In this document: piece by piece, positions 1-25,407 of the stretch | Layout of the letters: each line of letters opens with the position of its first letter | How positions within the stretch are numbered: the stretch's first letter is position 1 | DNA from: Nonlabens ponticola | GTDB taxonomy: Bacteria > Bacteroidota > Bacteroidia > Flavobacteriales > Flavobacteriaceae | Reading direction: 5' to 3' | Length of the DNA stretch: 32,000 bases | Assembly (NCBI RefSeq): GCF_003966335.1 | Contig: NZ_CP034549.1 | Span: forward strand, 1,530,001 to 1,562,000 | The notes under the pieces: generated by a model | The model's database searches: none | What the model was told of the DNA's origin: nothing | What the model saw: the letters and a program-made list of their open reading frames with translations, nothing else | Translations under genes and position numbers: made by a program

Positions 1-245
1 TGGATGTCGTGATAAAGTCAGAGCAAGAACAGGTACCGCAACAGCAAGATGCACAATTGCAGCGCATGGCGGCTCAATTGGCAGGACAAATGGCGATTAA
101 GACAGGTGAGCAATTACGAGTAGAGCAAATGCAGCAAGTCATTGACGAGCTTTTTGCTTGCGAGGAACCAGCGCTATCACCAGCTGGTAAAAAAGTATTT
201 ATTACGATTACGGGCGATACGCTCAGTTCAAAATTTGACCATTAA
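1..245 (+). CDS. mutL: DNA mismatch repair protein MutL, C-terminal fragment (5' end lies outside the window)
   Basis: The frame is open from the window edge to TAA at 243-245, with no stop upstream of the GTG at 9. The tail ...ELFACEEPALSPAGKKVFITI... resembles bacteroidete MutL C-termini. mutL followed by two rhomboid genes is a synteny I recall from Flavobacteriaceae. This rests on memory only. Confidence 0.5.
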   Translation, partial: DVVIKSEQEQVPQQQDAQLQRMAAQLAGQMAIKTGEQLRVEQMQQVIDELFACEEPALSPAGKKVFITITGDTLSSKFDH

Positions 246-940
246 TGTTTAGTAATATCACACCTGTAGTACGCAATTTGATCATCTTGAATGTCGTGAT
301 GTACATAGGTACCGTTTTTCTCGCGCCACAGCTGTATTATGATTTCAGTTTATGGTTTTTTAAACATCCTGAATTCGATTTCTGGCAAATCTTCTCGCAT
401 ATGTTTATGCATGATTCGCGCAGTTTCATGCATATCCTTTTTAATATGTATGGTTTGCTATTATTCGGGCCACTGTTGGAACGATGGATGGGATCCAACC
501 GATTTATATTTTTTTATCTCGCTTCAGGAATTGGTGCTTATTTATTAACGACAGGAATAGATTATTTTCAATACGTTCAGACCGTTGCCGAATTAGAATC
601 TAAAGGCTACAGCGCTAATGAAATACCTAATATCCTTTTCACCAAAACCTCACTGGCAGTTCCTATGGTAGGAGCAAGTGGTTGTCTCTTTGGTGTATTG
701 GCAGGGTTTGCTTATTTGTATCCCAATCTAAAGTTGCAATTGCTGTTTATACCAGTACCAATTGCTGCAAAATGGTTGATAGGCGCTTACGTCGCTTATG
801 AAACACTTGCCACCATTGGAATCATTAATTTACAAGACAATATTGGTCATGCAGCACACCTAGGTGGTGCGATATTTGGCTTTATTATGGTATGGTATTG
901 GAAACGTAACGACTACGATCAATATAGAATAGACAACTGA
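245..940 (+). CDS. Rhomboid family intramembrane serine protease
   Basis: Multi-TM protein with GASGCLFG (GxSG catalytic Ser) and HAAHLGG (catalytic His). Its ATG overlaps the mutL stop (TAATG). Confidence 0.85.
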   Translation: MFSNITPVVRNLIILNVVMYIGTVFLAPQLYYDFSLWFFKHPEFDFWQIFSHMFMHDSRSFMHILFNMYGLLLFGPLLERWMGSNRFIFFYLASGIGAYLLTTGIDYFQYVQTVAELESKGYSANEIPNILFTKTSLAVPMVGASGCLFGVLAGFAYLYPNLKLQLLFIPVPIAAKWLIGAYVAYETLATIGIINLQDNIGHAAHLGGAIFGFIMVWYWKRNDYDQYRIDN

Positions 941-1803
941 TGGATTTTATAGATTCTGTAAAACTTAAATATAAACAGCTTGACGTACTAGGTCAGCTCA
1001 TTGCCACGGTGGTAGTAGTGAATCTGGTTATATATCTGGCTTCTTTATTGTATCAACCCATCTGGAGTTGGTTTGCGTTGCCCGCTGGCTTCATTGAACC
1101 ATTATTGCAACCATGGGCTTTTATCACCTATGGGTTCTTGCATGGTGGCATTTTTCATCTATTGATAAACATGTACATCTTGTACATTATGGGTCAGTTT
1201 TTACTCAATTTATTTACTGGTAAACAATTACTATCGCTGTTTTGGGCAGGCGTTCTTGCCGGTGGTCTTGCATTTACGGCTGTCAGCGCCATTTTCACCG
1301 AATTTTTATTCAATACCCAATTAGTGGGTGCCAGCGCTGGTGTTTTTGCAGTGGTGTTTTTTGTATGCACCTATATGCCTGATCATGAGATACGCCTATT
1401 TTTTGTACTCAACGTTAAGCTCAAGTATTTGGCATTAGTGTTTTTAGGTTTTGACCTTATCGCCATTTTCACTGGCGTCAATGCTGGTGGTAGTATCGCT
1501 CATTTAGGTGGCGCCGCTTTGGGATATTATGCTGCAACGCGCATGAAAGATGGTATTGATGTATTGACAGGAGTTTCTGCTGCTGGTGATTGGTTAGGTA
1601 ATTTATTCAAGTCATCTGGTAAGCCTGCCAAAAAATCCAAAATGAAAACCGTTTACAAAAGTGCCAACAAGAAAAAAGCCGCCGGAAATCCAAAAGATCA
1701 ACAAGCGCGCATTGACGCTATACTTGACAAGATCAGTGCTTCTGGTTATGACAGCTTGAGCCGTGCCGAGAAGGATTTTCTCTTCAAGGCTGGAAAGGAG
1801 TAA
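940..1803 (+). CDS. Rhomboid family protein with a Lys-rich C-terminal tail
   Basis: Carries GASAGVFA and IAHLGGA motifs in TM helices, followed by a basic, soluble tail of about 90 aa. Its ATG overlaps the upstream stop (TGATG). Confidence 0.8.
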   Translation: MDFIDSVKLKYKQLDVLGQLIATVVVVNLVIYLASLLYQPIWSWFALPAGFIEPLLQPWAFITYGFLHGGIFHLLINMYILYIMGQFLLNLFTGKQLLSLFWAGVLAGGLAFTAVSAIFTEFLFNTQLVGASAGVFAVVFFVCTYMPDHEIRLFFVLNVKLKYLALVFLGFDLIAIFTGVNAGGSIAHLGGAALGYYAATRMKDGIDVLTGVSAAGDWLGNLFKSSGKPAKKSKMKTVYKSANKKKAAGNPKDQQARIDAILDKISASGYDSLSRAEKDFLFKAGKE

Positions 1804-1897: not shown

Positions 1898-2488
1898 CTA
1901 ATTTACACGTGGGTCTATACCACCCATCTTAGAATGGCTATAATTATATCCAAAAACGCTTTTAAGTTCACTACCGTCTTCCTTATACGGCTTGTAAAAT
2001 TTCAAATGATCAATTGTTTCTTCAAAACTTTGGTCAGTCCACTCAAAGTCAATTTTGTAATATTGTTTGATGTCGATAATTTGATTATCAGAATTTAATT
2101 GATAAACGTGGCGATAGGGTACTTCTGAAGTTTGAAAGTCGTTCGCAATTTCATTTTCTGCGCTAAAAAATGTCTCGATTATTTTTTGATCAGTATAGTC
2201 ATATCTTATTATAGGACCGCCGTAGAATCCAGATCCTGCCCAGTCTAATTCGTGTTTATAGTTGTAAAATCTTAATTCTGTAACTCTTCCTTTCTCATCG
2301 ATCGTTTCTTGTACGTAGGAGATAGAATCAATGCTGTCCACATTCCATTTTTCTAAAATAATATTTGATGCCGTAAAGCTAATTTCATGATACTTCTTAC
2401 TCTCGTTTTTTTCGCTTTCGCACGAAATGGTCGATAGAATAACAAAGAGCCACATTATTACAGTAGAAGTTCTAAATTTCTTTTTCAA
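1898..2488 (-). CDS. Hypothetical lipoprotein
   Basis: Long ORF. A TTG at 2488 gives MKKKFRTSTVIMWLFVILSTISC, a classic lipobox signal, and sits 13 nt after the upstream gene's stop. An alternative ATG is at 2455. The annotated ATG at 2575 would overlap the upstream gene and lacks a signal peptide. Confidence 0.6.
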   Translation of the reverse strand: MKKKFRTSTVIMWLFVILSTISCESEKNESKKYHEISFTASNIILEKWNVDSIDSISYVQETIDEKGRVTELRFYNYKHELDWAGSGFYGGPIIRYDYTDQKIIETFFSAENEIANDFQTSEVPYRHVYQLNSDNQIIDIKQYYKIDFEWTDQSFEETIDHLKFYKPYKEDGSELKSVFGYNYSHSKMGGIDPRVN

Positions 2489-2501
2489 ATCTTTCTTTCC
2501 T

Positions 2502-3143
2502 TTAAAACCTAGTCTGCATTCCTTGTGCACCACCAGCCTTGCCATACGGGCTAGGTAGCTGCCATTTGAAGACAACCGCTAGCACGCGCATGGCAATAAC
2601 GGCAATGGCAGATATAGGAAACACAAATTGCTCTAGCATACCTACTTTCAATAATAAAAAGTAAACGCCACCACCAAAAATACAGGCCGTAGCATACACA
2701 TTTTTACGGAAGATTACTGGAATCTCATTAACGAGAATATCACGTATCACACCACCAAAACAGGCCGTGATACAACCCAATGTAATACAGATAAATGGAT
2801 GGAGTCCTGTTTGGATTCCCATTTCGACACCAACGATGGTATAAAGACCTATACCTATGGCGTCAAATAGGAATAAGGTTTTACGCAGCTTGAGTAACCA
2901 GGTTCTAAAGATAAAAGTGATTACCACACATATCAATATGGTGTACACTAGGTTCATATTTGTCATCCAGGAAACAGGTTTGACACCTATCAATATGTCG
3001 CGCAACGTACCACCACCAGCTGATGTGACAAATGCAATAATCACGATACCAAAGGCATCCAGTCGTTTTGAAAATGCAGCAAGTGCGCCCGAGACTGCAA
3101 AGGCGATCGTGCCCAGCAAGTCCATAATTTCTATGATATTCAT
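2502..3143 (-). CDS. Trimeric intracellular cation channel (TRIC / UPF0126, YadS-YicG type) family membrane protein
   Basis: Two internal repeats each carry the glycine-rich motif (SAGGGTLRD and CFGGVIRD). About 7 TM helices. Typical length of 213 aa. Confidence 0.8.
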   Translation of the reverse strand: MNIIEIMDLLGTIAFAVSGALAAFSKRLDAFGIVIIAFVTSAGGGTLRDILIGVKPVSWMTNMNLVYTILICVVITFIFRTWLLKLRKTLFLFDAIGIGLYTIVGVEMGIQTGLHPFICITLGCITACFGGVIRDILVNEIPVIFRKNVYATACIFGGGVYFLLLKVGMLEQFVFPISAIAVIAMRVLAVVFKWQLPSPYGKAGGAQGMQTRF

Positions 3144-3866
3144 TTAATTTCCTTGTGTGAGATAAGTGTAATCCTTGAGCAGCGTACGTACAAATTCACC
3201 ATCGCGCAGCTCTGATTTGATGCCCAATAATTCTTCCAGGCGCAAGCGTAGCAATTTGAGCGCTGCATAATCACGGCTTTGCCCGGCAAGACGATAGATT
3301 TCCTTTGCCTCGTTTATTGTGGGATCTGTCAATTGATGTGCGGTAATGAAAGTAGGCTTATAGTCCTCGCGTACTTGTTCAAGTATAGTGTGAGAGATTT
3401 TGGTCTTCTTGCGTGTGTCAATGACGATCGTATTTGATGCGATGCCGCCCAATCGTTGGTTTTTATCGGTAAAAATAATTGAGATGATTGCAACTCCAGG
3501 TCCAGTAAGCCATAAATCAACTAGCCGCATGATCCAGGTGATAAAATAATCGCTCCACGTGGCAGGTGAGCCGTCAACCTTTACCGTGCGCAACTGTAAA
3601 ACAAATTTTCCAACCGTTTTACCGTTAAAAATGATGTTGAAGATGAGTGAGTAAAAGGCAATGGGTAAAAACAATAGTTGATACAATCCAATAGAGGTGA
3701 ATCGGTCTAGAGCATTTTCAAGGTTAGAAAACACATATGCTAGGGCAGATACGTAAACTCCCAAGACGACGAGATCGATCAAAAACGCCAGTATACGATA
3801 GCCCAGACTGGCAACTGTGTAGTTGATGTTTACATTTTGGGCAGTATTTACGGCAGTGTTTGACAT
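3144..3866 (-). CDS. RDD family membrane protein
   Basis: N-terminal YRILAFLIDLVV... RDD-type TM domain plus a soluble tail of about 90 aa. Its stop abuts the TRIC gene start with a 0-nt gap. Confidence 0.75.
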   Translation of the reverse strand: MSNTAVNTAQNVNINYTVASLGYRILAFLIDLVVLGVYVSALAYVFSNLENALDRFTSIGLYQLLFLPIAFYSLIFNIIFNGKTVGKFVLQLRTVKVDGSPATWSDYFITWIMRLVDLWLTGPGVAIISIIFTDKNQRLGGIASNTIVIDTRKKTKISHTILEQVREDYKPTFITAHQLTDPTINEAKEIYRLAGQSRDYAALKLLRLRLEELLGIKSELRDGEFVRTLLKDYTYLTQGN

Positions 3867-3891
3867 GCTGTATTTAGTTTTTATCTTTAGC

Positions 3892-3899
3892 CAAAACTA
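3892..3899 (-). promoter_or_regulatory. Candidate Bacteroidota -7 promoter box (TAGTTTTG) for the RDD operon
   Basis: The reverse complement of caaaacta matches TAnnTTTG. It lies 26 nt upstream of the RDD ATG and only 6 nt from the divergent ATG at 3905. Confidence 0.35.
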
Positions 3900-3904
3900 C
3901 AAGA

Positions 3905-4882
3905 ATGCGTGAGGCTGCTTTTGTGAAGCAAAATAAAGAAAAATGGATCGCATTTGAGCGCGCGCTGGATGCTAATTCTAACATTGCCGCAGATCGCCTT
4001 GCAGATCTTTACATACAGTTAACCAACGACCTCTCGTTTGCACAGACTTACTATCAAGAAAGTAAGACACTGCTGTATCTCAACTCGCTGGCATCACAGG
4101 CGCACCAGAAGATTTATAAGAATAAGAAAGAAAGTGGTAATAAGATATGGGACTTTTTCTCCTATGAATTCCCATTGTTTTTCGCAGACCATTTAAAGAC
4201 CTTAGGATTTGCCTTTTTGATATTTATGGTGGCAGTAGCCATAGGAACGATCAGTACATTAAATGACGATTCTTTCTCGCGATTGATCTTGGGTGATAGT
4301 TACGTCAACATGACGCTTGAAAATATACGTGATGGTAATCCTACAGGCGTTTATCAGCAGGATGGTGCGTTTGGGATGTTTATCGCGATCACGGTCAATA
4401 ATATCAAAGTAGGCATGTTCTGTTTTGCATTGGGTATCCTTACTTCTATAGGGACCAGTTACATTTTGTTTTCAAATGGAATTATGGTTGGAACATTTTT
4501 CAGTCTTTTTGCGCTTGAGAATGTAAGTCTAGAATCATGGAGTGTGATCATGTTGCACGGTACCATTGAGCTATCAGTTATTGTAGTATGTGGTGCCGCA
4601 GGAATGATCATGGGTAACTCGCTACTGTTTCCTAAAACGTATAGCAGGATTACTTCATTTACTCGTGGTGCAAAAAATGGGCTCAAGGTCATGATGAGTA
4701 CGGTACCTTTATTTATCATTGCAGGCTTTATCGAGGGCTTTGTAACCAGATATGCGTTCATGCCATCGATTATCAAGTACGCTATTCTCCTTGTGAGCGC
4801 GGCAATCATTTTAGGGTATTATGTACTCTACCCTTTATATCTCAAGAAAAAACATGCAACCATACATAGAACCACGGCTTAG
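3905..4882 (+). CDS. Stage II sporulation protein M-like (DUF95) membrane protein
   Basis: Soluble N-terminal domain of about 90 aa followed by 5-6 TM helices. The layout and length match proteins annotated as SpoIIM-like in Bacteroidota and Actinobacteria. It is the first gene of the plus-strand operon. Confidence 0.65.
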   Translation: MREAAFVKQNKEKWIAFERALDANSNIAADRLADLYIQLTNDLSFAQTYYQESKTLLYLNSLASQAHQKIYKNKKESGNKIWDFFSYEFPLFFADHLKTLGFAFLIFMVAVAIGTISTLNDDSFSRLILGDSYVNMTLENIRDGNPTGVYQQDGAFGMFIAITVNNIKVGMFCFALGILTSIGTSYILFSNGIMVGTFFSLFALENVSLESWSVIMLHGTIELSVIVVCGAAGMIMGNSLLFPKTYSRITSFTRGAKNGLKVMMSTVPLFIIAGFIEGFVTRYAFMPSIIKYAILLVSAAIILGYYVLYPLYLKKKHATIHRTTA

Positions 4883-5771
4883 AAGAGACTTTGGTGGCGT
4901 CATCTCGGCCTTTTTTGAATTTTTAAGAGGAAACCTACGCGGTCTCATCAGTGTGTTTATAGGTTATAATGGGATATTTTTCATCCTGTTTCTCATCAGC
5001 GTTTATTTCTTAATAACGGGAATAGTTGATGTAACGATGATCTCGATTACCGGCGGCGACGAGGATACGGCCTTTATTTTAATTGCAGTTTCTCTCATCG
5101 CTTTGTTTGGTTTTATCATTTTGGCCTCCATGTTTAATTATGCGCTATCCAGTGCATATGTGTCATTATATGAGCAAGAAAAGGTCAACAATCTAGATCG
5201 TAAGAAAGTGTGGAGACTTGCCAAAGGTCATCTGTTCGGTATGTTCTTGTTCATGTTGTGTCTGGTGGTCATTTATTTTATCAACGCGATATTACAAGTC
5301 GTATTAGGCTTTATTCCTGTTTTAGGATTATTAGCATCGTTGGTAGTAAGTTTTGGTCTCAATAGCTGGATTAGTATGAGTATTTTTAGCTACGTGCATA
5401 ATGAGAATCACAACGTTTTTGATGCTTTTGGCGAGGTATGGACGCTTTTATTTTCAGGATTTTGGAAAGCAATTGGCGCCAATTTTATCGTTGGAATTTT
5501 ACTGCAACTAGGTTTTGCAGCTATGAGCATCGTACCTACTATTTTGTTGGGTACCACCGCATATTTAGTCATTGACTCACCACAGGAATTTGGTGATAAC
5601 TTGTTTTTACAGATCTTAATCATACTTGTGGTAACTGCATTTTGTGTCATCGTTATGTTTATACAGATGCTGTCACAGATCATGAATGCTTTTCTATATT
5701 TCAACCTGCACGAGACAAAGAATAACATCTATTTACGCTCGCGTATTGAAAAATTGGGAACTACCGCATGA
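4854..5771 (+). CDS. Multi-pass membrane protein of unknown function
   Basis: ORF with about 6 hydrophobic helices. The ATG at 4854 (MQPYIEPRLRRDFGG...) is preferred over 4821. It overlaps the upstream gene by 29 nt and the downstream gene by ATGA. Confidence 0.55.
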   Translation: MQPYIEPRLRRDFGGVISAFFEFLRGNLRGLISVFIGYNGIFFILFLISVYFLITGIVDVTMISITGGDEDTAFILIAVSLIALFGFIILASMFNYALSSAYVSLYEQEKVNNLDRKKVWRLAKGHLFGMFLFMLCLVVIYFINAILQVVLGFIPVLGLLASLVVSFGLNSWISMSIFSYVHNENHNVFDAFGEVWTLLFSGFWKAIGANFIVGILLQLGFAAMSIVPTILLGTTAYLVIDSPQEFGDNLFLQILIILVVTAFCVIVMFIQMLSQIMNAFLYFNLHETKNNIYLRSRIEKLGTTA

Positions 5772-6526
5772 AATATATAATGTTCATGTTGATTGTTTTG
5801 GGTTCCGCTTTCGCGAAAGCGCAATCACTACAAGATCTAGTGCCACAAATAGAGCAACGTCCTCGACAAATCACTGACACGCTGGATCGTGACTACGACC
5901 AAAGAGCCGTTGAGGCACGAGCATTACCAGCCGATCTTGCAGATAATTATACGGGTGCCGATTTTGACTACACAGACACCACAAACGACGTCAACAATGT
6001 GTTTGAAGAGTTTTTTGAATGGTTGTTCCAGGGTATTGCATCCATTTTTGGTGTAGAGCTCAGTCCGTTTTGGCTTAAGTTTTTACAATACACGGTATAT
6101 GTATTATTTGCTGCACTGGCTATTTATTTATTGGTTAGATTACTAGGTAAGGAACAGGCGTCTGGGCTTACCATCAAAGCAGGTAAGAAAAAAGCCAGCA
6201 TACGAGCTGGAGAGACGCACATTGAAGAAATCGATTTAAACAAATTGATCGCCGATGCGGTAAATGGTAACGATTATCGCAGCGCCATACGTTATCAATA
6301 TCTCAACGTCCTCAAAAAATTAAGTGCCGCTGGCGTGATTGTTTGGGATTATCAAAAGACCAATGCCGACTATTATCGAGAGATTAAAAAACAAGAAGTA
6401 AAGGATCAATTCAAACGCATTTCATATCTATACGATCATGTATGGTATGGTGAATTTGCAGTGGATAGAAAAGTGTATGATCAGGCGTTGGTGCAGTTTA
6501 ATGACATTAAGAAAACAGCTGCTTGA
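5768..6526 (+). CDS. DUF4129 domain-containing protein (signal peptide, one TM, cytoplasmic DUF4129)
   Basis: Signal peptide MKYIMFMLIVLGSAFAKAQS. TM helix FLQYTVYVLFAALAIYLLV. C-terminal ...YRSAIRYQYLNVLKKL...KTNADYYREI...YLYDHVWYGEF is the DUF4129 pattern as I recall it. Confidence 0.65.
   Translation: MKYIMFMLIVLGSAFAKAQSLQDLVPQIEQRPRQITDTLDRDYDQRAVEARALPADLADNYTGADFDYTDTTNDVNNVFEEFFEWLFQGIASIFGVELSPFWLKFLQYTVYVLFAALAIYLLVRLLGKEQASGLTIKAGKKKASIRAGETHIEEIDLNKLIADAVNGNDYRSAIRYQYLNVLKKLSAAGVIVWDYQKTNADYYREIKKQEVKDQFKRISYLYDHVWYGEFAVDRKVYDQALVQFNDIKKTAA
5807..5820. repeat. Copy 2 of the GCTTTCGCGAAAGC palindrome, in frame (A-F-A-K-A) in the signal peptide of the DUF4129 gene
   Basis: Read directly: tcc gct ttc gcg aaa gcg caa = S A F A K A Q. 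Confidence 0.95.
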
Positions 6527-7866
6527 TGGATAAACGTACCAAATTCATTCTATACGCTATGCTAGTTGTCCTGATAGGTCTGGTAGTGTTAGAAAGCACA
6601 CGTCCCAAGCCTGTAAATTGGAGGCCCAGTTACACCAGCGGTGATAAAATCCCATTAGGCGGTTATGTTTTTTATGATAATCTAGATGAGATGTTTCCCG
6701 ATGCTCAGGTAAAAGCCATCGATCAGGTTCCTATTGATTTCTTGCGAGAGAATATTGATCTGACTGATGCTAACTATATTTTCTTGAATGACTATCTCGT
6801 TTTTGATGAGGTAGAGACTGATTATTTGATGGAATTTGCAGCTCGTGGTAATAAGGTTTTTATCTCTGCAGGATCCGCTTTTGGTGCTATGGCAGATACC
6901 TTGAAGCTAGAAACTAATTCTGGATCTTTTTACAGTTATGGAGCAGAAGATACGTTGCGCACAAGACTAGTCAATGAGAAATTCAAGGATCGTAGCTATG
7001 TGTATTCACGTGAAGGCTCATACCGATATTTTGAGAGTTATGATACGCTCAATTCTAAGGTATTAGGTGAGGTACTAGCTTTCAACCCTCAATCAACCTA
7101 TCTGGAAGAATTGATCATGGGCGATAGCGACGATGAAGAAGAACTAGATAGAGAAGACTGGACAGACGAGGAAAAGGAAGAACAGGAAGAAGCAGAACAG
7201 TCTTTTGAGGAAATGCAACTGGCAGAGCTTAAAACTCGCAAAACACCACAGGTAAACTTTGTAGAGACTAGAGTAGGTGATGGTGCTATCTATTATCACT
7301 TGAATCCTATTGCATTTTCTAACTATTATATGCTCAATGGTAAGGAAAACTATGTGGCCGAGGCTATGTCTTACCTTAACGATGGCGATGTGTATTTTGA
7401 TGATTATGGTAAGTCCGGTCGCAAGGTGATACAATCGCCTGTGCGATTTATACTATCAGATAGTGCATTGAGTGCCGCTTATTACCTGGCGATCGTCGCG
7501 ATTTTATTATATATAATTTTTGTAAGCAAGCGAGAGCAACGTATTGTGCCTGTGGTAAAACCGTTAGAGAATGCAACAGTTGATTTCACTAAAACCATAG
7601 GCGATCTTTATTTTGAAAGTGGTGATTATGACGCGATCGTCGATAAGAAAATATTGTTTTTTCTAGAGAATATACGATCGCGATATTATCTGAATACTCA
7701 AGAATTGAACGACGTGTTTATGAATAGACTAGCGGTCAAATCAGGAAAGTCAGTCAAGCAAACGGCAGACATTATTAACTATATCAAATTACTTAAATCT
7801 AAAAGTATCAATTATGAGCATGAGTTGACACAACTCACCAGACGTATTGAAGCTTTTAATTCATAA
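6526..7866 (+). CDS. DUF4350-like membrane-anchored protein
   Basis: N-terminal TM, a large extracytoplasmic domain with an acidic insert, a second TM (AAYYLAIVAILLYIIFV) and a cytoplasmic tail. The ATG at 6526 overlaps the upstream TGA, and a TTG lies at 6523. The family call is from memory of this conserved neighbourhood. Confidence 0.5.
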   Translation: MDKRTKFILYAMLVVLIGLVVLESTRPKPVNWRPSYTSGDKIPLGGYVFYDNLDEMFPDAQVKAIDQVPIDFLRENIDLTDANYIFLNDYLVFDEVETDYLMEFAARGNKVFISAGSAFGAMADTLKLETNSGSFYSYGAEDTLRTRLVNEKFKDRSYVYSREGSYRYFESYDTLNSKVLGEVLAFNPQSTYLEELIMGDSDDEEELDREDWTDEEKEEQEEAEQSFEEMQLAELKTRKTPQVNFVETRVGDGAIYYHLNPIAFSNYYMLNGKENYVAEAMSYLNDGDVYFDDYGKSGRKVIQSPVRFILSDSALSAAYYLAIVAILLYIIFVSKREQRIVPVVKPLENATVDFTKTIGDLYFESGDYDAIVDKKILFFLENIRSRYYLNTQELNDVFMNRLAVKSGKSVKQTADIINYIKLLKSKSINYEHELTQLTRRIEAFNS

Positions 7867-7871
7867 AAATC

Positions 7872-9017
7872 ATGCAAGATCACGACAATACCAACCCATC
7901 AAGCAATGATGAGGAAAACAAATTACCAGATGCTGCACAACAGCAGCATGTACACAAACCAGATGACGGTAATAACGCTTTAAAGGATAGCCCGATAGCG
8001 GACGAGATTGTTTCTGATGTACCTAAGGAAGATACAGAGGATAACGAGATAAACTTCTCATCAAGAGTTGATCTTTCTCAATTATCTAATGCGGTAAAGC
8101 AAATCAAAGAAGAGTTGCGCAAGGTGATCGTAGGTCAAGAAGAAATGATTGATTTGTTGATTGTATCCATCCTTGCCAATGGACACTCACTAATAGAAGG
8201 TGTACCAGGTGTGGCAAAAACTGTGACTGCTAAGTTACTTGCCAAAACCATGCAAGTAGACTTCTCAAGAATCCAATTCACGCCAGATTTAATGCCTAGT
8301 GATATTTTGGGAACTTCAGTTTTCTCCATGAAGGATAATGAATTTGAGTTTAAGGCTGGGCCTATTTTCTCAAACATCATTCTTATTGATGAGATCAATC
8401 GCGCACCAGCCAAAACACAGGCTGCGCTCTTTGAAGCAATGGCAGAACGCCAAGTAACCATTGATGGTAAGGAATATGCATTAGAGAATCCTTTTCTAGT
8501 ATTTGCTACACAAAATCCAGTAGAACAAGAAGGAACCTACAGACTGCCAGAAGCCCAGCTAGACCGTTTCTTATTCAAGATCAATGTGGATTACCCAGAT
8601 CTAGATGAAGAAATCCAAATTCTTGAAGGGAATCATAACCGTAAAAACGCTGATCCTGAATCCATGATTACAGGCATCATGACAGCACAGGAAATTGCTG
8701 ATCATCAGCTAACTGTGAAAGGAATAATAGTTGAGCCAGCCTTGATCAAATACATCGCACAAATTGTATTGAATACTCGCAATAATGCCAATCTGTATTT
8801 AGGCGCATCACCAAGAGCATCCATTGCTATCATGAATGGTTCAAAGGCGTATGCAGCGATAATGGGTCGTGATTTTGTCACACCAGACGATGTGAAGTAC
8901 ATCGCCAAGGCTGTCATGAGACATCGTATCATTCTCACACCAGAACGTGAGATGGAAGGCTTCACGGCAGACAAAGCTATCGCTCAAATCCTAGAAACGA
9001 TTGAAATACCTCGCTAG
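7872..9017 (+). CDS. moxR: MoxR-family AAA+ ATPase
   Basis: Walker A GVPGVAKT, Walker B ILIDEINR, and the sensor and arginine regions of the MoxR type (FATQNPVEQEGTYRLPEAQLDRF). It has an acidic N-terminal extension of about 60 aa. Confidence 0.9.
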   Translation: MQDHDNTNPSSNDEENKLPDAAQQQHVHKPDDGNNALKDSPIADEIVSDVPKEDTEDNEINFSSRVDLSQLSNAVKQIKEELRKVIVGQEEMIDLLIVSILANGHSLIEGVPGVAKTVTAKLLAKTMQVDFSRIQFTPDLMPSDILGTSVFSMKDNEFEFKAGPIFSNIILIDEINRAPAKTQAALFEAMAERQVTIDGKEYALENPFLVFATQNPVEQEGTYRLPEAQLDRFLFKINVDYPDLDEEIQILEGNHNRKNADPESMITGIMTAQEIADHQLTVKGIIVEPALIKYIAQIVLNTRNNANLYLGASPRASIAIMNGSKAYAAIMGRDFVTPDDVKYIAKAVMRHRIILTPEREMEGFTADKAIAQILETIEIPR

Positions 9018-10348
9018 TGAAGAGATTTTATAAGAGCATTTATTTAACGCCTAGATTATTCACGGTCATCATTTGTCAGGTGGTATTCTTTATTCTAAGT
9101 TTTTTCTTTAGAAGATTAGAAGGATACGCCATGATAGGTGTTTACATTCTGCTGGGATTATTTCTAGTGGATATGCTTTTATTATATCGTGCTAGCGGCA
9201 TTGACGCAACTCGCATATTGCCAGAGAAATTTTCCAATGGTGATGATAATCCAGTTCATATAACCGTAGTCAATAATTATCCTTACAAGATCAAAGTAGA
9301 GATCGTGGATGAATTGCCCGTTCAATTCCAGAAGCGTGATTTTAAATTAATGAATGATCTAGCCGCTGGCGGTACACATACTTCTATGTATGAGGCAAGA
9401 CCAGTGGATCGAGGTGAGTACCATTTTGGGTCACTAAACATTTATGCAATCAGCGACATAGGTTTTATCAAGCGTCGATATCGATTTGATAGCGATGCAA
9501 TGGTGCCCAATTATCCGTCATTTCTTCAAATGCGTAAGTATGAGCTCATGGCCTTCACCAACAAACTGCGTGATTATGGTATAAAAAAAATACGCAGGAT
9601 AGGGCACACCATGGAATTTGAGCAGATTAAGGATTACACACAAGGTGATGACGTGCGCAATATCAATTGGAAAGCATCAGCTAAGCGTAATTCCTTGATG
9701 ATCAATCAATATCAGGATGAGAAATCACAACCGGTATATAGCGTGATTGACAAAGGCCGCGTGATGAAAATGCCTTTTGAAGGCATGAAACTTGTCGATT
9801 ATGCAATAAATGCAACGCTAGTCATATCTAATATCGCCTTGAAAAAAGGTGATAAGGCAGGAATGTTTAGTTTCTCAGATAAGGTTCAAAATCAAGTGAT
9901 GGCTCAAAAACGCTCCTCACAAATGAATGTCATCCTTGAAACGCTTTACAATTTGGATACAGATTTTAAAGAGAGTGATTTCTCAAGATTATACATCGAT
10001 ATCAAACGTAGAATTACACAACGCAGTTTGCTATTGTTGTACAGTAATTTTGAAACACTAGACGCTCTACATAGACAATTGCCATACTTACAGGCTATTG
10101 CAAAGAACCATTTGTTGGTAGTTATTTTCTTTGAAAATACAGAGCTTAAAAAGCTTACCGATCTAGAAACTGAAAATACCCGACAGGTATTTCAACAAAC
10201 GATTGCCCAAAAGTTTAGGTATGAAAAAAAGCTCGTTGTAAATGAGCTAAATAATTATGGTATTCAAACGATCCTTACAAAACCACAGGATCTTACAGTG
10301 AATACGATTAATAAATATTTAGAGATAAAAGCTAGAGGCTTGCTCTAA
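9017..10348 (+). CDS. DUF58 (vWA-like) domain protein, the usual MoxR partner
   Basis: Two N-terminal TM helices. DUF58 signature ...GDDVRNINWKASAKRNSLMINQYQDEK.... The GTG start overlaps the moxR TAG (TAGTG). Confidence 0.85.
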   Translation: MKRFYKSIYLTPRLFTVIICQVVFFILSFFFRRLEGYAMIGVYILLGLFLVDMLLLYRASGIDATRILPEKFSNGDDNPVHITVVNNYPYKIKVEIVDELPVQFQKRDFKLMNDLAAGGTHTSMYEARPVDRGEYHFGSLNIYAISDIGFIKRRYRFDSDAMVPNYPSFLQMRKYELMAFTNKLRDYGIKKIRRIGHTMEFEQIKDYTQGDDVRNINWKASAKRNSLMINQYQDEKSQPVYSVIDKGRVMKMPFEGMKLVDYAINATLVISNIALKKGDKAGMFSFSDKVQNQVMAQKRSSQMNVILETLYNLDTDFKESDFSRLYIDIKRRITQRSLLLLYSNFETLDALHRQLPYLQAIAKNHLLVVIFFENTELKKLTDLETENTRQVFQQTIAQKFRYEKKLVVNELNNYGIQTILTKPQDLTVNTINKYLEIKARGLL

Positions 10349-11353: not shown

Positions 11354-11466
11354 GATCTTAGGCTTTACCCAAAGGTATGCTTTCAATCAAGTCGAAATGA
11401 TTAAAGTGGCGTTAACACCGCGGCATGCGATTTGATACAGATCTTGCCTATTTGAAATCCATCACC

Positions 11467-12003
11467 ATGCCCAGAATTATACTCTTGCTGCTCACTATTA
11501 CCATTGTAAGCAGCTGTACCAGCTATAAACAACTAGCCAAGCAAGATCCTAACGAGACCACATACTACTATGATAAGAACCTAGAGGGCAGCTATGAAAA
11601 CGAAGTCTCAGAAAATCAAAAAGTTAGTTTGTGGCAAGATTTGTATCGCGCCAGATACAATAAAGATATCCCGCACAGCGCCTACCGCACACAGGTCAAG
11701 ATTAATGTGCCATCTGATCGCGAACTTATTGCAACGCTCTATCGAGATGGTCGTAAAGAGGATAGCCTACTATTTAAAGGCAAGCAAAAAGGTAAATACT
11801 TTGTCTTGCGTAAACGTAGCCGATTCTTACCATTATTTCCAATCTTACTAGCTTCCGAAGGCACGAAGACGATCATAGGCAACGACCTTGAAGGCAACCT
11901 CACATTGGTTCAAAAAATTTCTAGCTCTTCATCGTCACCTTTATTGAACACATCTTCAGGAATAGACGCAGAGGTGATCACCGCAGTTTATGCCAGAAAA
12001 TAA
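11467..12003 (+). CDS. Hypothetical lipoprotein
   Basis: The ATG at 11467 gives MPRIILLLLTITIVSSC (lipobox). A terminator follows the gene. Confidence 0.55.
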   Translation: MPRIILLLLTITIVSSCTSYKQLAKQDPNETTYYYDKNLEGSYENEVSENQKVSLWQDLYRARYNKDIPHSAYRTQVKINVPSDRELIATLYRDGRKEDSLLFKGKQKGKYFVLRKRSRFLPLFPILLASEGTKTIIGNDLEGNLTLVQKISSSSSSPLLNTSSGIDAEVITAVYARK

Positions 12004-20859: not shown

Positions 20860-22359
20860 TTACTCCAAAGTCAGAAATGTTTTTTTTGTACCACCATCAC
20901 TTATCATAACAAACCTTTGATAATCAAATGAGCCATAGTATGGTCGGTAAAAATGATTTCCTGCATTATCCTGTATTTTATTATAGGACGGCTCGCCATC
21001 ACTTTCGAAGTCTATATCATATAACGCAGTGGTTTCAAACCAGCCTTTTGATAGCTTTGTTCTTCCGTCATTTTTTTCTGTAAGGTTTTTGCCAGAATTT
21101 AAAAGAACGTGTAACTGATCGTCGATTATAAAAGCATTATAAGAAGGGCTTTGTGATCTTTTAAATATGCTGCGACCCCATTCCAGTTTGCCTGTAGGAT
21201 CAAATTTCAATATCAAGATGTCATCATAGTTGGGCGTGGTTCTCGTGAAACCTCCATTCATGCCATTTGCAACATACGTGGTGGAAAGATAAAATTCCTC
21301 GGCAATGAGATAGGCATTTCCAGCCGTGTCAGTAAGTATATAATCAATGTCAAAATTTCCCAGTTCTTTCTTCTTTTTGTTTTTCCTGTCGGCTCTTGCC
21401 TCGCCATAAAGATCTTCATAAACCTGTTTAGGTAATACTTGACTTTTTCTAGAAATCACTTTAAGGGCATCTTTATCTATACTAAATACACAACCGCCTT
21501 TTACCCAACGCTCTTGATTTTCTGAGTATAAACCGACTAGATTGAATTGGCCATCAACACTTGAGAAGCCCAGCGACTGGATCAACATATCCTGACCTAA
21601 ATCAATCTTGAGGGTTTCATTAAGATCAGCCGCGATTTTATTAAGCACGATCTCATAGTTAGCGTCACCATCTTTATTCTTTTTTCTTGAGCCGTTTTCA
21701 AATAGCTTACCCAAAGAGTAAACATTCAGGTCATCATCGATGAAAAGATCATTATGTTCATAAAGGATTTCTTCTCCTTCCTGATATGATTTTTGATACA
21801 CCAGCTTGCTACTGGCTGCCTCAAAAACACGTATGGTATGAGAGTTCTTATTCTTACGGTTGTTATCAGTGGCAATGGCAAAGTGAGCGCCATCTGGCGT
21901 TACTGAAAAGTTAGTGCGATGATTGCGACGAGAACCAAACAGACTTTGTTTTTTCTCAACTTCTTGCTCAAAAAGTGTTCTTGTAGTAACGTTTTTACTC
22001 GCCATATCGATCGTGTGAGAATACACGATTCGCTCATCTTTTTTGGGCGAGTAAACCGTAAAGAATCTCAACAAATCATCGGTTTTTATCGCACCGATAA
22101 ATTTTTGCTTGCGTTCTCTATCGACAATTTGATGGTTAAGCTCACTAAAATTTTCATCGTAAAAGTGGACATGATATTTGCGCTTTGACCCGCGCACGGT
22201 CACGACATTGCCGTTTGCAGCAGAATGTATGGCGAGTATGCTTTCTGCTTTTGATTTGTCATCAAAAACTTTGCTTTTTGTGATTTCTAATTTACTGGCT
22301 TCCTGCGCACATAGCACTTGCGAGGCTAGAACGGACAATAGTAGAAATATGATTCTCAT
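20860..22359 (-). CDS. Secreted hypothetical protein (499 aa), possibly beta-propeller-like
   Basis: Signal peptide MRIIFLLLSVLASQVLCAQE. Long uninterrupted ORF. I recognised no motif. Confidence 0.65.
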   Translation of the reverse strand: MRIIFLLLSVLASQVLCAQEASKLEITKSKVFDDKSKAESILAIHSAANGNVVTVRGSKRKYHVHFYDENFSELNHQIVDRERKQKFIGAIKTDDLLRFFTVYSPKKDERIVYSHTIDMASKNVTTRTLFEQEVEKKQSLFGSRRNHRTNFSVTPDGAHFAIATDNNRKNKNSHTIRVFEAASSKLVYQKSYQEGEEILYEHNDLFIDDDLNVYSLGKLFENGSRKKNKDGDANYEIVLNKIAADLNETLKIDLGQDMLIQSLGFSSVDGQFNLVGLYSENQERWVKGGCVFSIDKDALKVISRKSQVLPKQVYEDLYGEARADRKNKKKKELGNFDIDYILTDTAGNAYLIAEEFYLSTTYVANGMNGGFTRTTPNYDDILILKFDPTGKLEWGRSIFKRSQSPSYNAFIIDDQLHVLLNSGKNLTEKNDGRTKLSKGWFETTALYDIDFESDGEPSYNKIQDNAGNHFYRPYYGSFDYQRFVMISDGGTKKTFLTLE

Positions 22360-22452: not shown

Positions 22453-23277
22453 TTACTTTTTCATCAACATGGCTTTGCCAGTGAACTCTGCCATCCCGAT
22501 TTTTGGATTGTTGTAAAGTTCCACTTTTGCATCGCCGCTAGCTCTCAATTCTAGATTGTCTTTAGCATTCACTTGCGCATCGGCATTTCTAGTAATTTTT
22601 AGTTTAAGATCTTTAACTTCTAAATTCTTTCCTTCCATTTTTGATCTGCCCTCAAGCACCATCGTACTATTGTCTAGATCGCCTTCCATTCGACTCTCTG
22701 CGCGGTCAGTCAACATAAAGTCAACACGATCATACATAGTCAAGGCTTTAAGATTACTAGAACCAGATAAGTTGATCTGTGCACTAGAACCAGACAGATT
22801 ACATTCTGCTCTAGAGTCTGCGCTACCATTAAAGACAAGCTCGTCCACCTGACCAGTGAGATAGACTCGTGCGTCATCCTTAAGGTTCACCTGCAGATTA
22901 TCCATACGTAGATCGGTTAACGAACTCAACTGCGCATCGTCTTTGACATTAATAGTTGTAAACTCTTCTGTATAAATAATGTTGATCTTCAATTCCTTGC
23001 TACGACGTATCTCTGCCGTTTGATTGATGGTAAGGTTACCGTTTTGCACTAGAATGTTAATGAACGGCTGTATGTTAGAATCTGTAATGATCTCCACTTG
23101 CGGACTCGTTCCTTGAGCAATGGCAATTTCATAATCGCCACCTATTTCTATGGACTCAAACATGTCCACATCTATGATGCGTTTAGTAACTTCTTTATTT
23201 CCTTTGATTTTTGTGCGGTCTTGCGCTTTCGCGAAAGCGAAACTCAACAACAACATCACAACAACTATCTTTTTCAT
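22453..23277 (-). CDS. DUF2807 (head GIN / 'Toastrack'-type) domain secreted protein
   Basis: Signal peptide MKKIVVVMLLLSFAFAKAQD. Repetitive beta-helix-like segments (LSGSSAQINLSGSSNLKA, ASGDAKVELY) are typical of DUF2807. Confidence 0.65.
   Translation of the reverse strand: MKKIVVVMLLLSFAFAKAQDRTKIKGNKEVTKRIIDVDMFESIEIGGDYEIAIAQGTSPQVEIITDSNIQPFINILVQNGNLTINQTAEIRRSKELKINIIYTEEFTTINVKDDAQLSSLTDLRMDNLQVNLKDDARVYLTGQVDELVFNGSADSRAECNLSGSSAQINLSGSSNLKALTMYDRVDFMLTDRAESRMEGDLDNSTMVLEGRSKMEGKNLEVKDLKLKITRNADAQVNAKDNLELRASGDAKVELYNNPKIGMAEFTGKAMLMKK
23225..23238. repeat. Copy 7 of the GCTTTCGCGAAAGC palindrome, in frame (A-F-A-K-A) in the signal peptide of the DUF2807 gene
   Basis: Read directly. 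The minus strand reads ttc gct ttc gcg aaa gcg caa = F A F A K A Q. Confidence 0.95.
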
Positions 23278-23391
23278 GTAATTATTTTAAGGTAAAAGTA
23301 ACCAAAAACCGCTCCACAAACGTGAAACGGTTCTTAAGGTATTGCGCTATTTAACAGCAAATACAATGCAATATGTAAAAAATAAGTGCGA

Positions 23392-25068
23392 TCATGGTTG
23401 GTTGTTTTTTTCTACACCGTCGTTGCCGTCGTATTTCCAATTGGCGTTTTCGGTAGTAGGTTCATCTGTGGTTTCTTTTGCCTGTGTTTCTTCAACGGGA
23501 CAATCAACGCAAACAGCTTTTCCATTCTTGATTTGATACGTGTAGTCAATGTTATTTCCCAGCGTGATGGCGTCACGATTCATGTTTGATCGATAACGTT
23601 GCCCAAATCTTCTATTGAATCGAGCCTTTGTGCCTTCTGGTAAATAAATCGTCATTTGAAGATTGTGTTTAGGTATTCCAGAACCTTCTTGAACCAATAC
23701 ATAATCAGCACCCGTAAAGGTCGAATCTGTCAATTCATAATTGTATTTAATCAAATCTGCCTTGTTGCGTGCCTCATCAAAACTAGATCCATAGGCTTCA
23801 TAAATCATCTCGACGCTCGCAAGACTATCAGTAGTGGTGCCTACAGCGACCCGAACATCATAAACCTTTAAGTAATTGATGCCGTCTTGCTCGCTCACTT
23901 CAAAGCCTATCTCATTATTATTGAGATTCATTGTGCGATCGTTACTAGTCTCCAACGCCATTTCAAAAACGATGTTATCGTCAATATTTGCCGTGTCAAC
24001 TCGTTGCACGGTCGCGCTTGTCGCAGTGCTAGCAGCTAATTGACCTACCATAACACTGAGTACAATAACCGCTATAATCCAGACGCCAGTGAGTGACAAA
24101 TAGGTTTTGCCACCTATAGATTTTAGTCTACTCACGAGCATTTTAAGTCCCAAAATAGCGAGTAGGAACAATGGTATTCCAGCCGCAAGGATGATGGCAA
24201 GTACAAACCACCAGCTTGCCTGCTCCGCAGGTATCACTACATTAAAAAATCTCAATAAGCTGTTGCCATCAACGTTCACAGCACTGGCAGTAATGGTAGA
24301 TACAACAAGAGCAACTAGAGCAATTGACCCAGCAAGGAATAGGATAAGACCTAAAATCTTGACAAAAGCGATGGCAATACCCTTGATCAACCTACCCAAA
24401 AAGCTGAAGAACTTAACCGTACCTCGCTTTCCTCTTTGACCTACTACATTGCTGTGGCTGGCGTCGGTCTGCCCATCAGCCACGGGCTCAAAACCCGCTT
24501 TGAAGTTCTCTTCTATATTGGAGATATTAACTTCCTTACCCATCATGGTAAGACGTTGGTTTGTAGTTACCGCGTCTGGCACAAAAATCCACAATACTAT
24601 ATATCCTAAAATTGAATAACCGGCAGTCAAAAAGGCGAGTAGAACCATGAGTACACGCACCCATATCATCTCAATACCCAGATAGTAACTCAAACCAGCA
24701 CTAACGCCACCTATGTATCCATTTTGGGTATCTCTAAACAATTGCTTGTTTGCGCCGCTGTACGATTTTCTTGATCGATTTTTAGGCTCGTCAAAGATTT
24801 CCTCGTCAACCTCATAATCTTCAGGTTGACCCATGATGGTGATCACTTCTTCTACATGTGACGCGCTAATGACCTGTTGATCGTTTGCTCTACGTTCGAG
24901 AAAAAGCTCTGCAATTCTCGATTCTATGTCGCTCATGATCTCATCGCTTCCAGTAGATCCTGCAAAGGATTTGCGTACGGCAGCGAGATATCGCTGTAAT
25001 CTCAAGTAGGCATCTTCATCAATATGGAAGAACAACCCAGCGAGGTTTATGTTGATGGTCTTGTTCAT
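23392..25068 (-). CDS. PspC domain-containing membrane protein with an N-terminal helical (DUF1700/HAAS-like) domain and a large C-terminal extracytoplasmic domain
   Basis: PspC motif YIGGVSAGLSYYLGIEMIWVRVLMVLLAF and several additional TM helices. The N-terminus ...YLRLQRYLAAVRKSF...SDIESRIAELF resembles sensor domains that partner with PadR. Its ATG overlaps the PadR stop (ATGA). Confidence 0.8.
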   Translation of the reverse strand: MNKTININLAGLFFHIDEDAYLRLQRYLAAVRKSFAGSTGSDEIMSDIESRIAELFLERRANDQQVISASHVEEVITIMGQPEDYEVDEEIFDEPKNRSRKSYSGANKQLFRDTQNGYIGGVSAGLSYYLGIEMIWVRVLMVLLAFLTAGYSILGYIVLWIFVPDAVTTNQRLTMMGKEVNISNIEENFKAGFEPVADGQTDASHSNVVGQRGKRGTVKFFSFLGRLIKGIAIAFVKILGLILFLAGSIALVALVVSTITASAVNVDGNSLLRFFNVVIPAEQASWWFVLAIILAAGIPLFLLAILGLKMLVSRLKSIGGKTYLSLTGVWIIAVIVLSVMVGQLAASTATSATVQRVDTANIDDNIVFEMALETSNDRTMNLNNNEIGFEVSEQDGINYLKVYDVRVAVGTTTDSLASVEMIYEAYGSSFDEARNKADLIKYNYELTDSTFTGADYVLVQEGSGIPKHNLQMTIYLPEGTKARFNRRFGQRYRSNMNRDAITLGNNIDYTYQIKNGKAVCVDCPVEETQAKETTDEPTTENANWKYDGNDGVEKNNQP

Positions 25069-25406: not shown

Positions 25407-25407
25407 C

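Follow-up and report, generated by a model that had tools for sequence, protein, structure and literature searches.

A seven-gene locus of the flavobacterium Nonlabens ponticola (assembly GCF_003966335.1, contig NZ_CP034549.1) raised the question of what a MoxR-type AAA+ ATPase and a DUF58 protein do when they are encoded together with RDD, SpoIIM-like, DUF4129 and DUF4350 proteins and one further membrane protein, here called memb3. The locus lies in a stretch of 32,000 nucleotides (nt), positions 1,530,001 to 1,562,000 of the contig, which was analysed as a whole and is referred to as the window. An earlier reading made from the letters without database searches (the sequence-only reading) had supposed that no function is assigned to this cluster, and the literature that we searched indeed held neither a functional characterisation of it nor a name. 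Our comparison indicated that the N. ponticola copy is a typical, unremarkable member of a widespread seven-gene MoxR membrane cluster. We favour, with somewhat less than even confidence, an explanation of two linked modules, a five-gene core of fixed order and a mobile SpoIIM/RDD pair, that would together form an ancient, widely distributed inner-membrane system in which MoxR and DUF58 remodel a complex with a periplasmic output and a role in the envelope. Within this explanation, a single membrane complex serviced by MoxR is much more likely than the remodelling of the envelope.

The six plus-strand genes form a translationally coupled operon, from which the RDD gene diverges (Table 1). The memb3 start codon ATG 4854 overlapped the SpoIIM-like gene, which stops at 4880–4882, by 29 nt (62 nt if the alternative ATG 4821 is used), and the memb3 and DUF4129 genes were joined by ATGA at 5768–5771. 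The DUF4129 and DUF4350 genes met in TGATG at 6524–6528, where the 446-amino-acid (aa) DUF4350 protein of NCBI begins at ATG 6526; a 5-nt gap (7867–7871) separated the DUF4350 gene from moxR, and TAGTG at 9015–9019 joined moxR to the DUF58 gene. The coordinates of the open reading frames (ORFs) and direct reading of the sequence bore out all seven genes and five junctions that had been claimed, and the DUF4350 and SpoIIM-like proteins were 100% identical to N. ponticola proteins at NCBI. When the proposed domain assignments were checked, all products but memb3 passed the Pfam gathering cut-offs; NCBIfam offered a model for only one of the seven. Hydropathy gave transmembrane (TM) segments in every product except MoxR, as the sequence-only reading had stated, and its placement of soluble domains on both faces of the membrane fitted both the AlphaFold2 models and the charge counts, with acidic parts outside and basic parts inside. 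The G+C content of the locus equalled that of its flanks and was uniform throughout. The candidate promoter-like site in Table 1 is a consensus match only, and the number of such sites in the 38-nt intergenic region between the RDD and SpoIIM-like genes was not above shuffled expectation.

Table 1. Genes of the MoxR membrane cluster and a candidate promoter-like site, in coordinates of the window
Feature	Position	Strand	Remarks
RDD-family membrane protein, 240 aa	3144-3866	-	Divergent from operon; Pfam RDD (PF06271) 55 bits
SpoIIM-like membrane protein, 325 aa	3905-4882	+	Pfam SpoIIM (PF01944/COG1300) 122 bits
memb3 polytopic membrane protein, 305 aa from ATG 4854	4854 (or 4821)-5771	+	Sub-threshold DUF4013
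DUF4129 protein, 252 aa	5768-6526	+	Pfam DUF4129 (PF13559) 26.7 bits, cut-off 24.8
DUF4350 protein, 446 aa	6526-7866	+	Pfam DUF4350 (PF14258/arCOG01314) 34.7 bits, cut-off 30.4
MoxR AAA+ ATPase, 381 aa, soluble	7872-9017	+	AAA_3 212 bits, AAA_lid_2 81 bits
Long-form DUF58 protein, 443 aa	9017-10348	+	Pfam DUF58 68 bits
Candidate promoter-like site	3860-3887	+	TTGACA-16-TATCTT, 10/12 consensus match

One genome per GTDB species was scanned with a cross-phylum MoxR alignment; from the first 600 matches the best 80 were taken and annotated over ±10 kb with profiles iterated from the window proteins and with Pfam spot checks. The sample is biased towards relatives of this MoxR and includes many cut contigs, so its fractions are descriptive and do not express prevalence. 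At least two of the system-specific families were found in 55 of the 80 MoxR loci, from about 13 phyla (hereafter system loci). DUF4129 and DUF4350 occurred together in 51 loci, SpoIIM was present in 46 and RDD, adjoining the SpoIIM-like gene, in 35, and all seven families were found in 17. With this recurrence of the gene set in phylum after phylum, the seven-gene arrangement is far beyond chance, and co-conservation extends well past close relatives, as had been expected. The system loci belonged to Bacteroidota, Actinomycetota, Acidobacteriota, Chloroflexota, Gemmatimonadota, Planctomycetota, Verrucomicrobiota, Poribacteria and others, with further ones in Alpha-, Beta- and Gammaproteobacteria and in a metagenome-assembled genome (MAG) labelled Ignavibacteriales; Pfam independently confirmed the system families in other phyla. 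The remaining loci mostly combined MoxR with a short, Bat-like DUF58 or with a TgpA-like protein.

The order memb3-DUF4129-DUF4350-MoxR-DUF58 was constant wherever these genes were detected. The RDD/SpoIIM pair behaved as a mobile unit, divergent upstream in Bacteroidota, co-directional upstream in Gammaproteobacteria and downstream elsewhere. Copies on large annotated secondary replicons, found by tblastn of the SpoIIM-like protein against PLSDB, read RDD-SpoIIM-hypothetical (515 aa)-DUF4350-MoxR-DUF58 in Catenovulum (Gammaproteobacteria) and DUF805-hypothetical-hypothetical-MoxR-DUF58-SpoIIM-RDD in Paracoccus and Rhizobium (Alphaproteobacteria), and a Prevotella copy had the gene order of the window. 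Actinobacterial system loci were seen directly in Nocardia and Nonomuraea, each with all seven families, and in Streptomyces, Kribbella and Bifidobacterium; together with the mycobacterial genes Rv3689–Rv3695, they showed that the actinobacterial neighbourhood mentioned by the sequence-only reading is real. The two modules also occurred apart. An RDD/SpoIIM pair on a Bernardetia plasmid (L004, 8076–10854) and another in Arthrobacter (L009, 8071–9984) had no MoxR, DUF58 or DUF4350 within 9 kb, and the same was true of a lone memb3::SpoIIM fusion in Haladaptatus (L005, 7930–9399), for which no RDD was detected; the core was found with neither SpoIIM nor RDD within 10 kb in Streptomyces, Kribbella and Nesterenkonia. 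The RDD/SpoIIM module can therefore stand by itself or have its genes away from those of the core, and because pair and core also occur separately, one seven-subunit complex is likely but not proven.

Natural fusions, recognised as stop-free ORFs or annotated coding sequences, connected the components in a chain RDD::SpoIIM::memb3::DUF4129::DUF4350. RDD was fused to SpoIIM in a Gemmatimonadaceae MAG (L042), SpoIIM to memb3 in an annotated 617-aa protein of Bernardetia, with memb3 leading in the Haladaptatus fusion, and DUF4129 to DUF4350 completely in one locus (L053) and partially in Nocardia (L007, an ORF with part of DUF4350). DUF4129 proteins of 510–590 aa in Gammaproteobacteria, Acidobacteriota, Verrucomicrobiota and Planctomycetota carried an N-terminal polytopic half that was homologous to memb3 (hhalign probability 95%, E 2e-8). 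At least one such fusion thus tied each non-ATPase component to a neighbour, which suggested that the components act together; to judge from the sequences, these links are the strongest computational argument for joint action.

The ATPase was identified by its motifs as an AAA_3 (MRP-like) AAA+ ATPase in which all of them are intact. Walker A (GVPGVAKT, nt 8199–8222) and the DE of Walker B (nt 8388–8393) were complete, residues G110–T117, D173/E174, N215 and R232 were conserved in 63–64 of 64 sequences, and the match to PDB 2R44 had an E value of 5.5e-83. An N-terminal low-complexity extension of about 70 aa (nt 7872–8081) was rich in Asp, Asn, Gln and Pro. The DUF58 protein had been called the vWA-like (von Willebrand factor A-like) partner of MoxR, and this description stood as far as the DUF58 match directly downstream of moxR is concerned, but did not extend to a canonical MIDAS (metal-ion-dependent adhesion site). 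A TM hairpin (residues ~13–58) and an Ig-like region (~63–190) preceded its vWA-like domain, where the DxSxS motif of a functional MIDAS was absent and D245-K-G-R248-V-M (nt 9749–9766) stood as a pseudo-MIDAS. System DUF58 proteins had D-x-(G/S)-R at this position, with D245 in 58 of 58 and R248 in 55 of 58, whereas the short Bat-type DUF58 proteins of non-system loci had the canonical DxSxS. An N-terminal TM segment was present in 45 of 57 system DUF58 proteins against 5 of 19 others, and the Ig-like region with the TM hairpin, typical of the system, was missing from most non-system DUF58 proteins sampled. Since the canonical MIDAS is missing, this DUF58 is not to be read as a standard metal-dependent adaptor.

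By hydropathy and charge, the DUF4129 protein opens with a signal peptide or anchor, which is followed by an acidic stretch in the periplasm (residues 20–103), a TM segment (104–127) and a cytoplasmic helical domain with the Pfam match (178–240); its orthologues, which scored 40–45 bits, shared the TM pattern. In Bacillus ndiopicus (L046), the TgpA-like transglutaminase protein encoded after MoxR-DUF58 also ended in DUF4129, and in a Bathyarchaeia contig (L085), a minimal archaeal form, MoxR-DUF58 was preceded by a small DUF4129 protein. Because it is common to different MoxR-DUF58 systems, DUF4129 is likely to be a docking module and is the best candidate for the docking domain.

The DUF4350 protein was laid out as a TM segment (residues 3–25), a periplasmic alpha/beta domain (~45–300), a second TM segment (313–337) and a cytoplasmic domain (353–445) modelled with confidence as a five-helix bundle (mean predicted local distance difference test, pLDDT, 78 overall). 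When the model of the alpha/beta domain was searched with Foldseek, the middle domain of GH42 beta-galactosidases and GH164 mannosidases came top (E ~5e-4). The middle domain of GH42 enzymes is a glutamine-amidotransferase-like trimerisation domain. The match agreed with the link to GldG that was obtained by HHpred in 2015 (PMC5898192). No catalytic residue was conserved across phyla, only N266 and R336 reaching 85%, and the periplasmic module is therefore modelled as a non-catalytic fold of the GldG/GH42-middle-domain type. The juxtamembrane cytoplasmic stretch 335–354 (nt 7528–7587), KREQRIVPVVKPLENATVDF, was near-invariant in Flavobacteriaceae, and R336 and an acidic residue at 353 persisted across phyla; because the stretch is strongly conserved yet modelled with a pLDDT below 50, it looks like, and would suit, a linear docking peptide. 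The periplasmic domain also held an acidic low-complexity insert at about 196–240 (nt 7111–7245), DSDDEEELDREDWTDEEKEEQEEAEQ.... Comparison of the C-terminal domain with DUF4129 by hhalign gave a weak, suggestive match (E 1.2e-3, probability 19%, 87 columns). A flavobacterial DUF4350 profile found 4,197 clusters of 50% identity at E<=1e-3 among 1.84 billion representatives. A tblastn search of plasmids with DUF4350 found Prevotella only; the divergence of the family is too great for BLAST. Sequence searches of the PDB with the DUF4350, DUF58 and DUF4129 proteins returned nothing.

Among the polytopic subunits, the SpoIIM-like protein matched its Pfam profile over the full length (positions 1–163 of 163), and its AlphaFold2 model (pLDDT 78) had a cytoplasmic three-helix N-terminal domain (residues 1–73) and six TM helices. 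Residues N166, N191, H218, G219, E222, R248 and E277 were invariant in a nine-sequence cross-phylum alignment and were kept in 51–54 of 56 system sequences; R248 lies in a cytoplasmic loop and the other six within TM helices. Foldseek matched the model to no solved PDB fold (best E 0.67), which leaves no basis for likening it to a transporter or an enzyme. Precomputed Pfam annotation placed a second family, PF28475, on every SpoIIM-like homologue, and this family may cover the N-terminal cytoplasmic domain. The RDD protein had three TM segments and a C-terminal domain of about 100 aa. In its R...D...D signature R24 and D31 were present and the third residue was G141 (nt 3444–3446), giving RLGG where 47 of 50 system RDD proteins have RLGD; the glycine was found in this genome only. 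The product of the third gene, described before simply as a membrane protein, is polytopic as described, but by itself reached only a sub-threshold DUF4013 match and was placed in a family through its orthologues (39 members in the iterated hidden Markov model). Because those in other phyla match the GPDPase_memb, DUF7544 and DUF7847 models, memb3 belongs to a GPDPase_memb/DUF975/DUF4013-like superfamily of polytopic membrane domains. It is optional, with no separate gene in Chitinophagaceae and joined to DUF4129 in Gammaproteobacteria.

We propose that a putative cytoplasmic MoxR hexamer would be tethered to the membrane by the TM-anchored DUF58, whose vWA-like domain, its metal site exchanged for arginine, would hand the cytoplasmic helical domains of the DUF4129 and DUF4350 proteins and the juxtamembrane peptide to MoxR. 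ATP-driven remodelling of these two bitopic proteins would then assemble a membrane complex, or switch its state, that also includes the SpoIIM-like, RDD and memb3 subunits, with an output at the periplasmic face through the GldG/GH42-middle-domain-like module of DUF4350 and a possible role in cell-envelope homeostasis or remodelling. Translational coupling, co-conservation, fusions, the features of DUF58, topology and the intact MoxR motifs support this explanation, and a general precedent is given by MoxR proteins that serve with a vWA partner as dedicated assembly chaperones (NorQD, CbbQO and RavA-ViaA, cited in PMC11834572 and PMC3893208); we infer that a physical complex forms, in which direction it acts and that it serves the envelope. 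A more specific version, which we judge quite unlikely, would make the system an AAA+-driven transmembrane mechanotransmission machine, a MoxR-powered counterpart of ABC systems of the FtsEX/MacB type that controls cell-wall or envelope remodelling and is tied to MtrAB-LpqB in Actinomycetota. Cytoplasmic ATP hydrolysis, through DUF58 and DUF4129-type domains, would move the bitopic DUF4350 and DUF4129 proteins, and this movement would switch the periplasmic GldG-like module and the SpoIIM/RDD scaffold.

The envelope was suggested by neighbours and relatives. Neighbour clustering placed the five-gene core divergently adjacent to a shared two-component-system block in eight Actinomycetota loci (L006, L083, L053, L067, L071, L072, L076 and L079), which come from Nonomuraea, four Streptomyces, Kribbella, Nesterenkonia and a palsa MAG. 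The block was identified in detail as mtrA-mtrB-lpqB type in two of the eight: the Nonomuraea locus (L006, 15740–18184) encoded an OmpR-type regulator whose best PDB match was MtrA (2GWR, 371 bits versus 211 for the next), and the Kribbella locus (L083, 2659–6943) an OmpR-type regulator, a HAMP/HisKA/HATPase kinase and an LpqB protein (Germane+Gmad1). Rv3694c and Rv3695 were among the proteins pulled down with the divisome-associated Rv0954 (PMC8093794), which is a weak hint, and SpoIIM is the scaffold of the Bacillus subtilis DMP cell-wall hydrolase complex (PMC5898192). The protein of the window belongs to the same Pfam family, PF01944, and differs from B. subtilis SpoIIM in its extra N-terminal cytoplasmic domain of about 90 aa; no SpoIID or SpoIIP gene was found in the window or conserved in the scanned loci. 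We take N. ponticola not to be spore-forming.

Several points weigh against the explanation that we favour. No enzyme is encoded, and DUF4350 lacks conserved catalytic residues. The modules are separable, with the RDD/SpoIIM pairs of Bernardetia and Arthrobacter and the memb3::SpoIIM fusion of Haladaptatus away from any MoxR, and with the bare core of Streptomyces and Kribbella. Loss of the MIDAS means that the usual logic of vWA and ligand may not apply. Simple neighbour-joining trees, in which 17 Bat-type MoxRs formed a pure clade, did not recover the system MoxRs as one clade, and MoxR identity was not decisive, being 0.51 within the system and 0.47 between system and other sequences. The fusions L042 and L053 are single MAG contigs and L007 is partial, so that assembly errors are possible. 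The adjacency to mtrAB may be inherited synteny, and the Rv0954 pull-down lists many membrane proteins. Lastly, a block of about 15 Mycobacterium chelonae genes (BB28_RS01830–RS01900), comprising glpF, glpK, padR and the whole MoxR cluster, was listed as down-regulated in one strain with log2 fold changes of -6 to -9 (Table 4 of PMC8191103). We rejected this as evidence of co-regulation, since so contiguous a drop looks like a genomic deletion and not regulation. The MoxR/DUF58 genes reported in the SigF regulon of M. smegmatis could not be tied to this cluster.

Much of the cluster is already known in pieces: its families are catalogued, its mycobacterial copy carries annotation, and part of its neighbourhood had been pointed out by 2015. 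In that year Makarova et al. (PMC5898192) described an archaeal DUF4350 (arCOG01314)-MoxR-vWA association as a predicted secretion or membrane-remodelling complex and noted bacterial SpoIIM homologues next to a vWA protein and a COG0714 ATPase. The M. chelonae table (PMC8191103) labels the orthologues as a membrane protein (Rv3689), DUF4350 (Rv3691), MoxR (Rv3692), DUF58 (Rv3693), SpoIIM (Rv3694c) and RDD (Rv3695). The mycobacterial set Rv3689–Rv3695, in which MoxR2 is Rv3692 and which has orthologues in M. chelonae and M. abscessus, thus comprises the same families as the locus studied here; the SpoIIM/RDD pair of actinobacteria is encoded downstream of DUF58, whereas here it lies upstream. 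Rv3690 is presumably the DUF4129 member. The literature searched held no full seven-family definition, no account of the cross-phylum breadth or of the fusion chain, and no mention of the arginine pseudo-MIDAS, of DUF4129 as a shared docking module or of the adjacency to mtrAB-lpqB; where DUF4350 was mentioned for Bacteroides fragilis and Geobacter, no functional information was given.

The Bat operon shares with the locus an MRP-type MoxR followed by DUF58, its occurrence in Bacteroidota and its association with the membrane (PMC11834572). MoxR leads that operon, whereas here it is the fifth of six genes, and the Bat-type DUF58 is short with DxSxS, whereas this one is long with a pseudo-MIDAS. 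The Bat partners are the vWA proteins BatA and BatB and the TPR proteins BatC-E, and the claim that the arrangement has none of them held, as no gene for either kind was found in the 32-kb window or in the 55 system loci. A paper on a Riemerella MoxR was set aside as a source on the system because it deals with the Bat operon.

The alternatives rank, by weight, as two modules, export, membrane-proximal proteolysis, cofactor loading of the NorQD kind and phage defence. The first holds that two independent, often neighbouring units are involved, a MoxR-DUF58 chaperone for DUF4129 and DUF4350 (with memb3) and a MoxR-independent transporter or scaffold made of RDD and SpoIIM. This would account for the stand-alone RDD/SpoIIM pairs and the memb3::SpoIIM fusion, for the core without SpoIIM/RDD in Streptomyces, Kribbella and Nesterenkonia, for the changes in position and strand of the pair relative to the core and for SpoIIM polar residues that are invariant in stand-alone copies too. 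We nevertheless consider it unlikely: SpoIIM lies within 10 kb of MoxR in 46 of the 80 MoxR-anchored loci, from many phyla, the SpoIIM::memb3 and memb3::DUF4129 fusions bridge both units, and partners that seem absent may sit elsewhere in those genomes. The second is a novel secretion or export system, in which the polytopic subunits would be a conduit that MoxR powers or assembles. For the archaeal arCOG01314 neighbourhood, Makarova et al. (2015; PMC5898192) predicted such a system on the grounds of the GldG-like domain and of the membrane and extracellular partners. Our DUF4350 fold match is in line with what they obtained by HHpred, and the cluster encodes several polytopic proteins. The archaeal neighbourhood and the locus have in common a COG0714 MoxR, a vWA-type protein and a DUF4350 protein that is anchored by TM segments at both termini and has a flavodoxin-like/GldG-like domain outside the cytoplasm. 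However, RDD, DUF4129 and the GPDPase_memb-like protein lie outside the description of that neighbourhood, and of its S-layer and Ig-like partners (arCOG02884 and others) none was conserved in the bacterial loci, where neighbour clustering gave no substrate-like secreted, S-layer/Ig-like or outer-membrane protein. The SpoIIM-like model matched no known transporter or secretion fold, and MoxR ATPases are not known to be translocases; export is thus improbable.

Quality control or degradation next to the membrane, with substrates brought in by DUF58, unfolded by MoxR and processed by a membrane subunit, perhaps at an intramembrane His/Glu site of the SpoIIM-like protein, would follow the model that Zhang and Aravind (2012; PMC3495828) proposed for the MoxR-vWA-TgpA/YebA triad. 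That triad likewise has MoxR and DUF58, followed by a polytopic membrane protein that ends in a cytoplasmic DUF4129 (L046), and H218, E222, E277, N166 and N191 of the SpoIIM-like protein are conserved inside TM helices. The TgpA-like protein of L046 has a transglutaminase core, whereas none of the seven proteins matched Transglut_core; DUF4129 sits here on a small bitopic protein and elsewhere is joined to a GPDPase_memb-like domain, and DUF4350, SpoIIM and RDD are additional to the triad. No peptidase or transglutaminase domain was found in any of the seven by Pfam or NCBIfam, nor HExxH or another known intramembrane-protease motif, and the fold search with the SpoIIM-like model gave no protease; we hold this alternative to be slightly less probable than export. 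MoxR/vWA pairs mature metal sites of membrane or large enzymes (NorQD, cited in PMC11834572). By analogy, MoxR-DUF58 might load a cofactor or metal into the intramembrane polar site of the SpoIIM-like protein, with its invariant His, two Glu and two Asn, or of RDD. NorQ/NorD, CbbQ/CbbO and RavA/ViaA, an AAA+ MoxR and a vWA-fold adaptor for one client complex, are our working analogy for the favoured mechanism, but their adaptors are soluble, with a functional MIDAS and known enzyme clients, whereas the adaptor here is membrane-anchored, with a pseudo-MIDAS and uncharacterised membrane-protein clients. The system DUF58 lacks the metal-binding MIDAS serines, SpoIIM-like proteins without a MoxR neighbour conserve the polar residues just as well, and no metal-related gene occurred in the conserved neighbourhood; we give this idea little credence. 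An anti-phage or conflict system of the MoxR-vWA type is very unlikely. MoxR had a bpMoxR Pfam sub-match of 54 bits, and ternary MoxR-vWA conflict systems were reportedly described by Kaur and co-workers in 2020. In PADLOC, however, MoxR gave only weak generic AAA+ matches (DolB 29.5 bits, IetA 17 bits) and the six partners none, no effector domain was found, and the G+C content equals that of the flanks. The cluster keeps a stable position, beside Gly_transporter in Flavobacteriaceae and mtrAB-lpqB in Actinomycetota, and among the copies found, all were on chromosomes or on non-mobilizable replicons of 0.19–1.8 Mb filed as plasmids (chromids) and none on a small mobile element.

In the remainder of the window, a Gly_transporter (PF03458) gene (2502–3143, minus strand) directly adjoined the cluster, its start codon (3141–3143) abutting the RDD stop codon (3144–3146) with no gap. 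This neighbour was conserved in Flavobacteriaceae only (including L011, L013, L014 and L015), and the adjacency is probably lineage synteny and not part of the system. Two tandem rhomboid-family genes occupied the left end (245–1803, plus strand). A gene for a PspC-domain protein with a toast-rack C-terminus (23392–25068, minus strand) lay in a cluster at 22453–25905, flanked by genes for a DUF2807 protein (22453–23277) and a DUF4870 protein (25408–25905, minus strand); this cluster is possibly an envelope-stress module unrelated to the MoxR system. ORFs at 11425–12003 (plus strand, 192 aa), 20860–22359 (minus strand, 499 aa) and 1898–2575 (minus strand, 225 aa) had no Pfam family at E<=1e-4. 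The dnaA gene at the right end (30280–31707, minus strand) puts the locus no more than about 20 kb from the probable origin of replication.

MoxR-vWA/DUF58 operons are among the commonest unexplained ATPase systems of prokaryotes, and this system is present in mycobacteria (Rv3689–Rv3695), bifidobacteria, Prevotella, rhizobia and pseudomonads. The comparison makes its DUF labels testable, as the fusion chain predicts contacts between the subunits and the topology predicts the side of the membrane that each part faces; docking is likely to occur where the arginine pseudo-MIDAS of DUF58 faces the juxtamembrane peptide and the domains of DUF4129 type. Envelope and division would be the first pathways to examine, with MtrAB-LpqB in actinomycetes. 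As a target the system is well defined, broadly conserved and of medical relevance; should the envelope role hold in Mycobacterium tuberculosis, cell-wall biology would gain a new conserved membrane machine.

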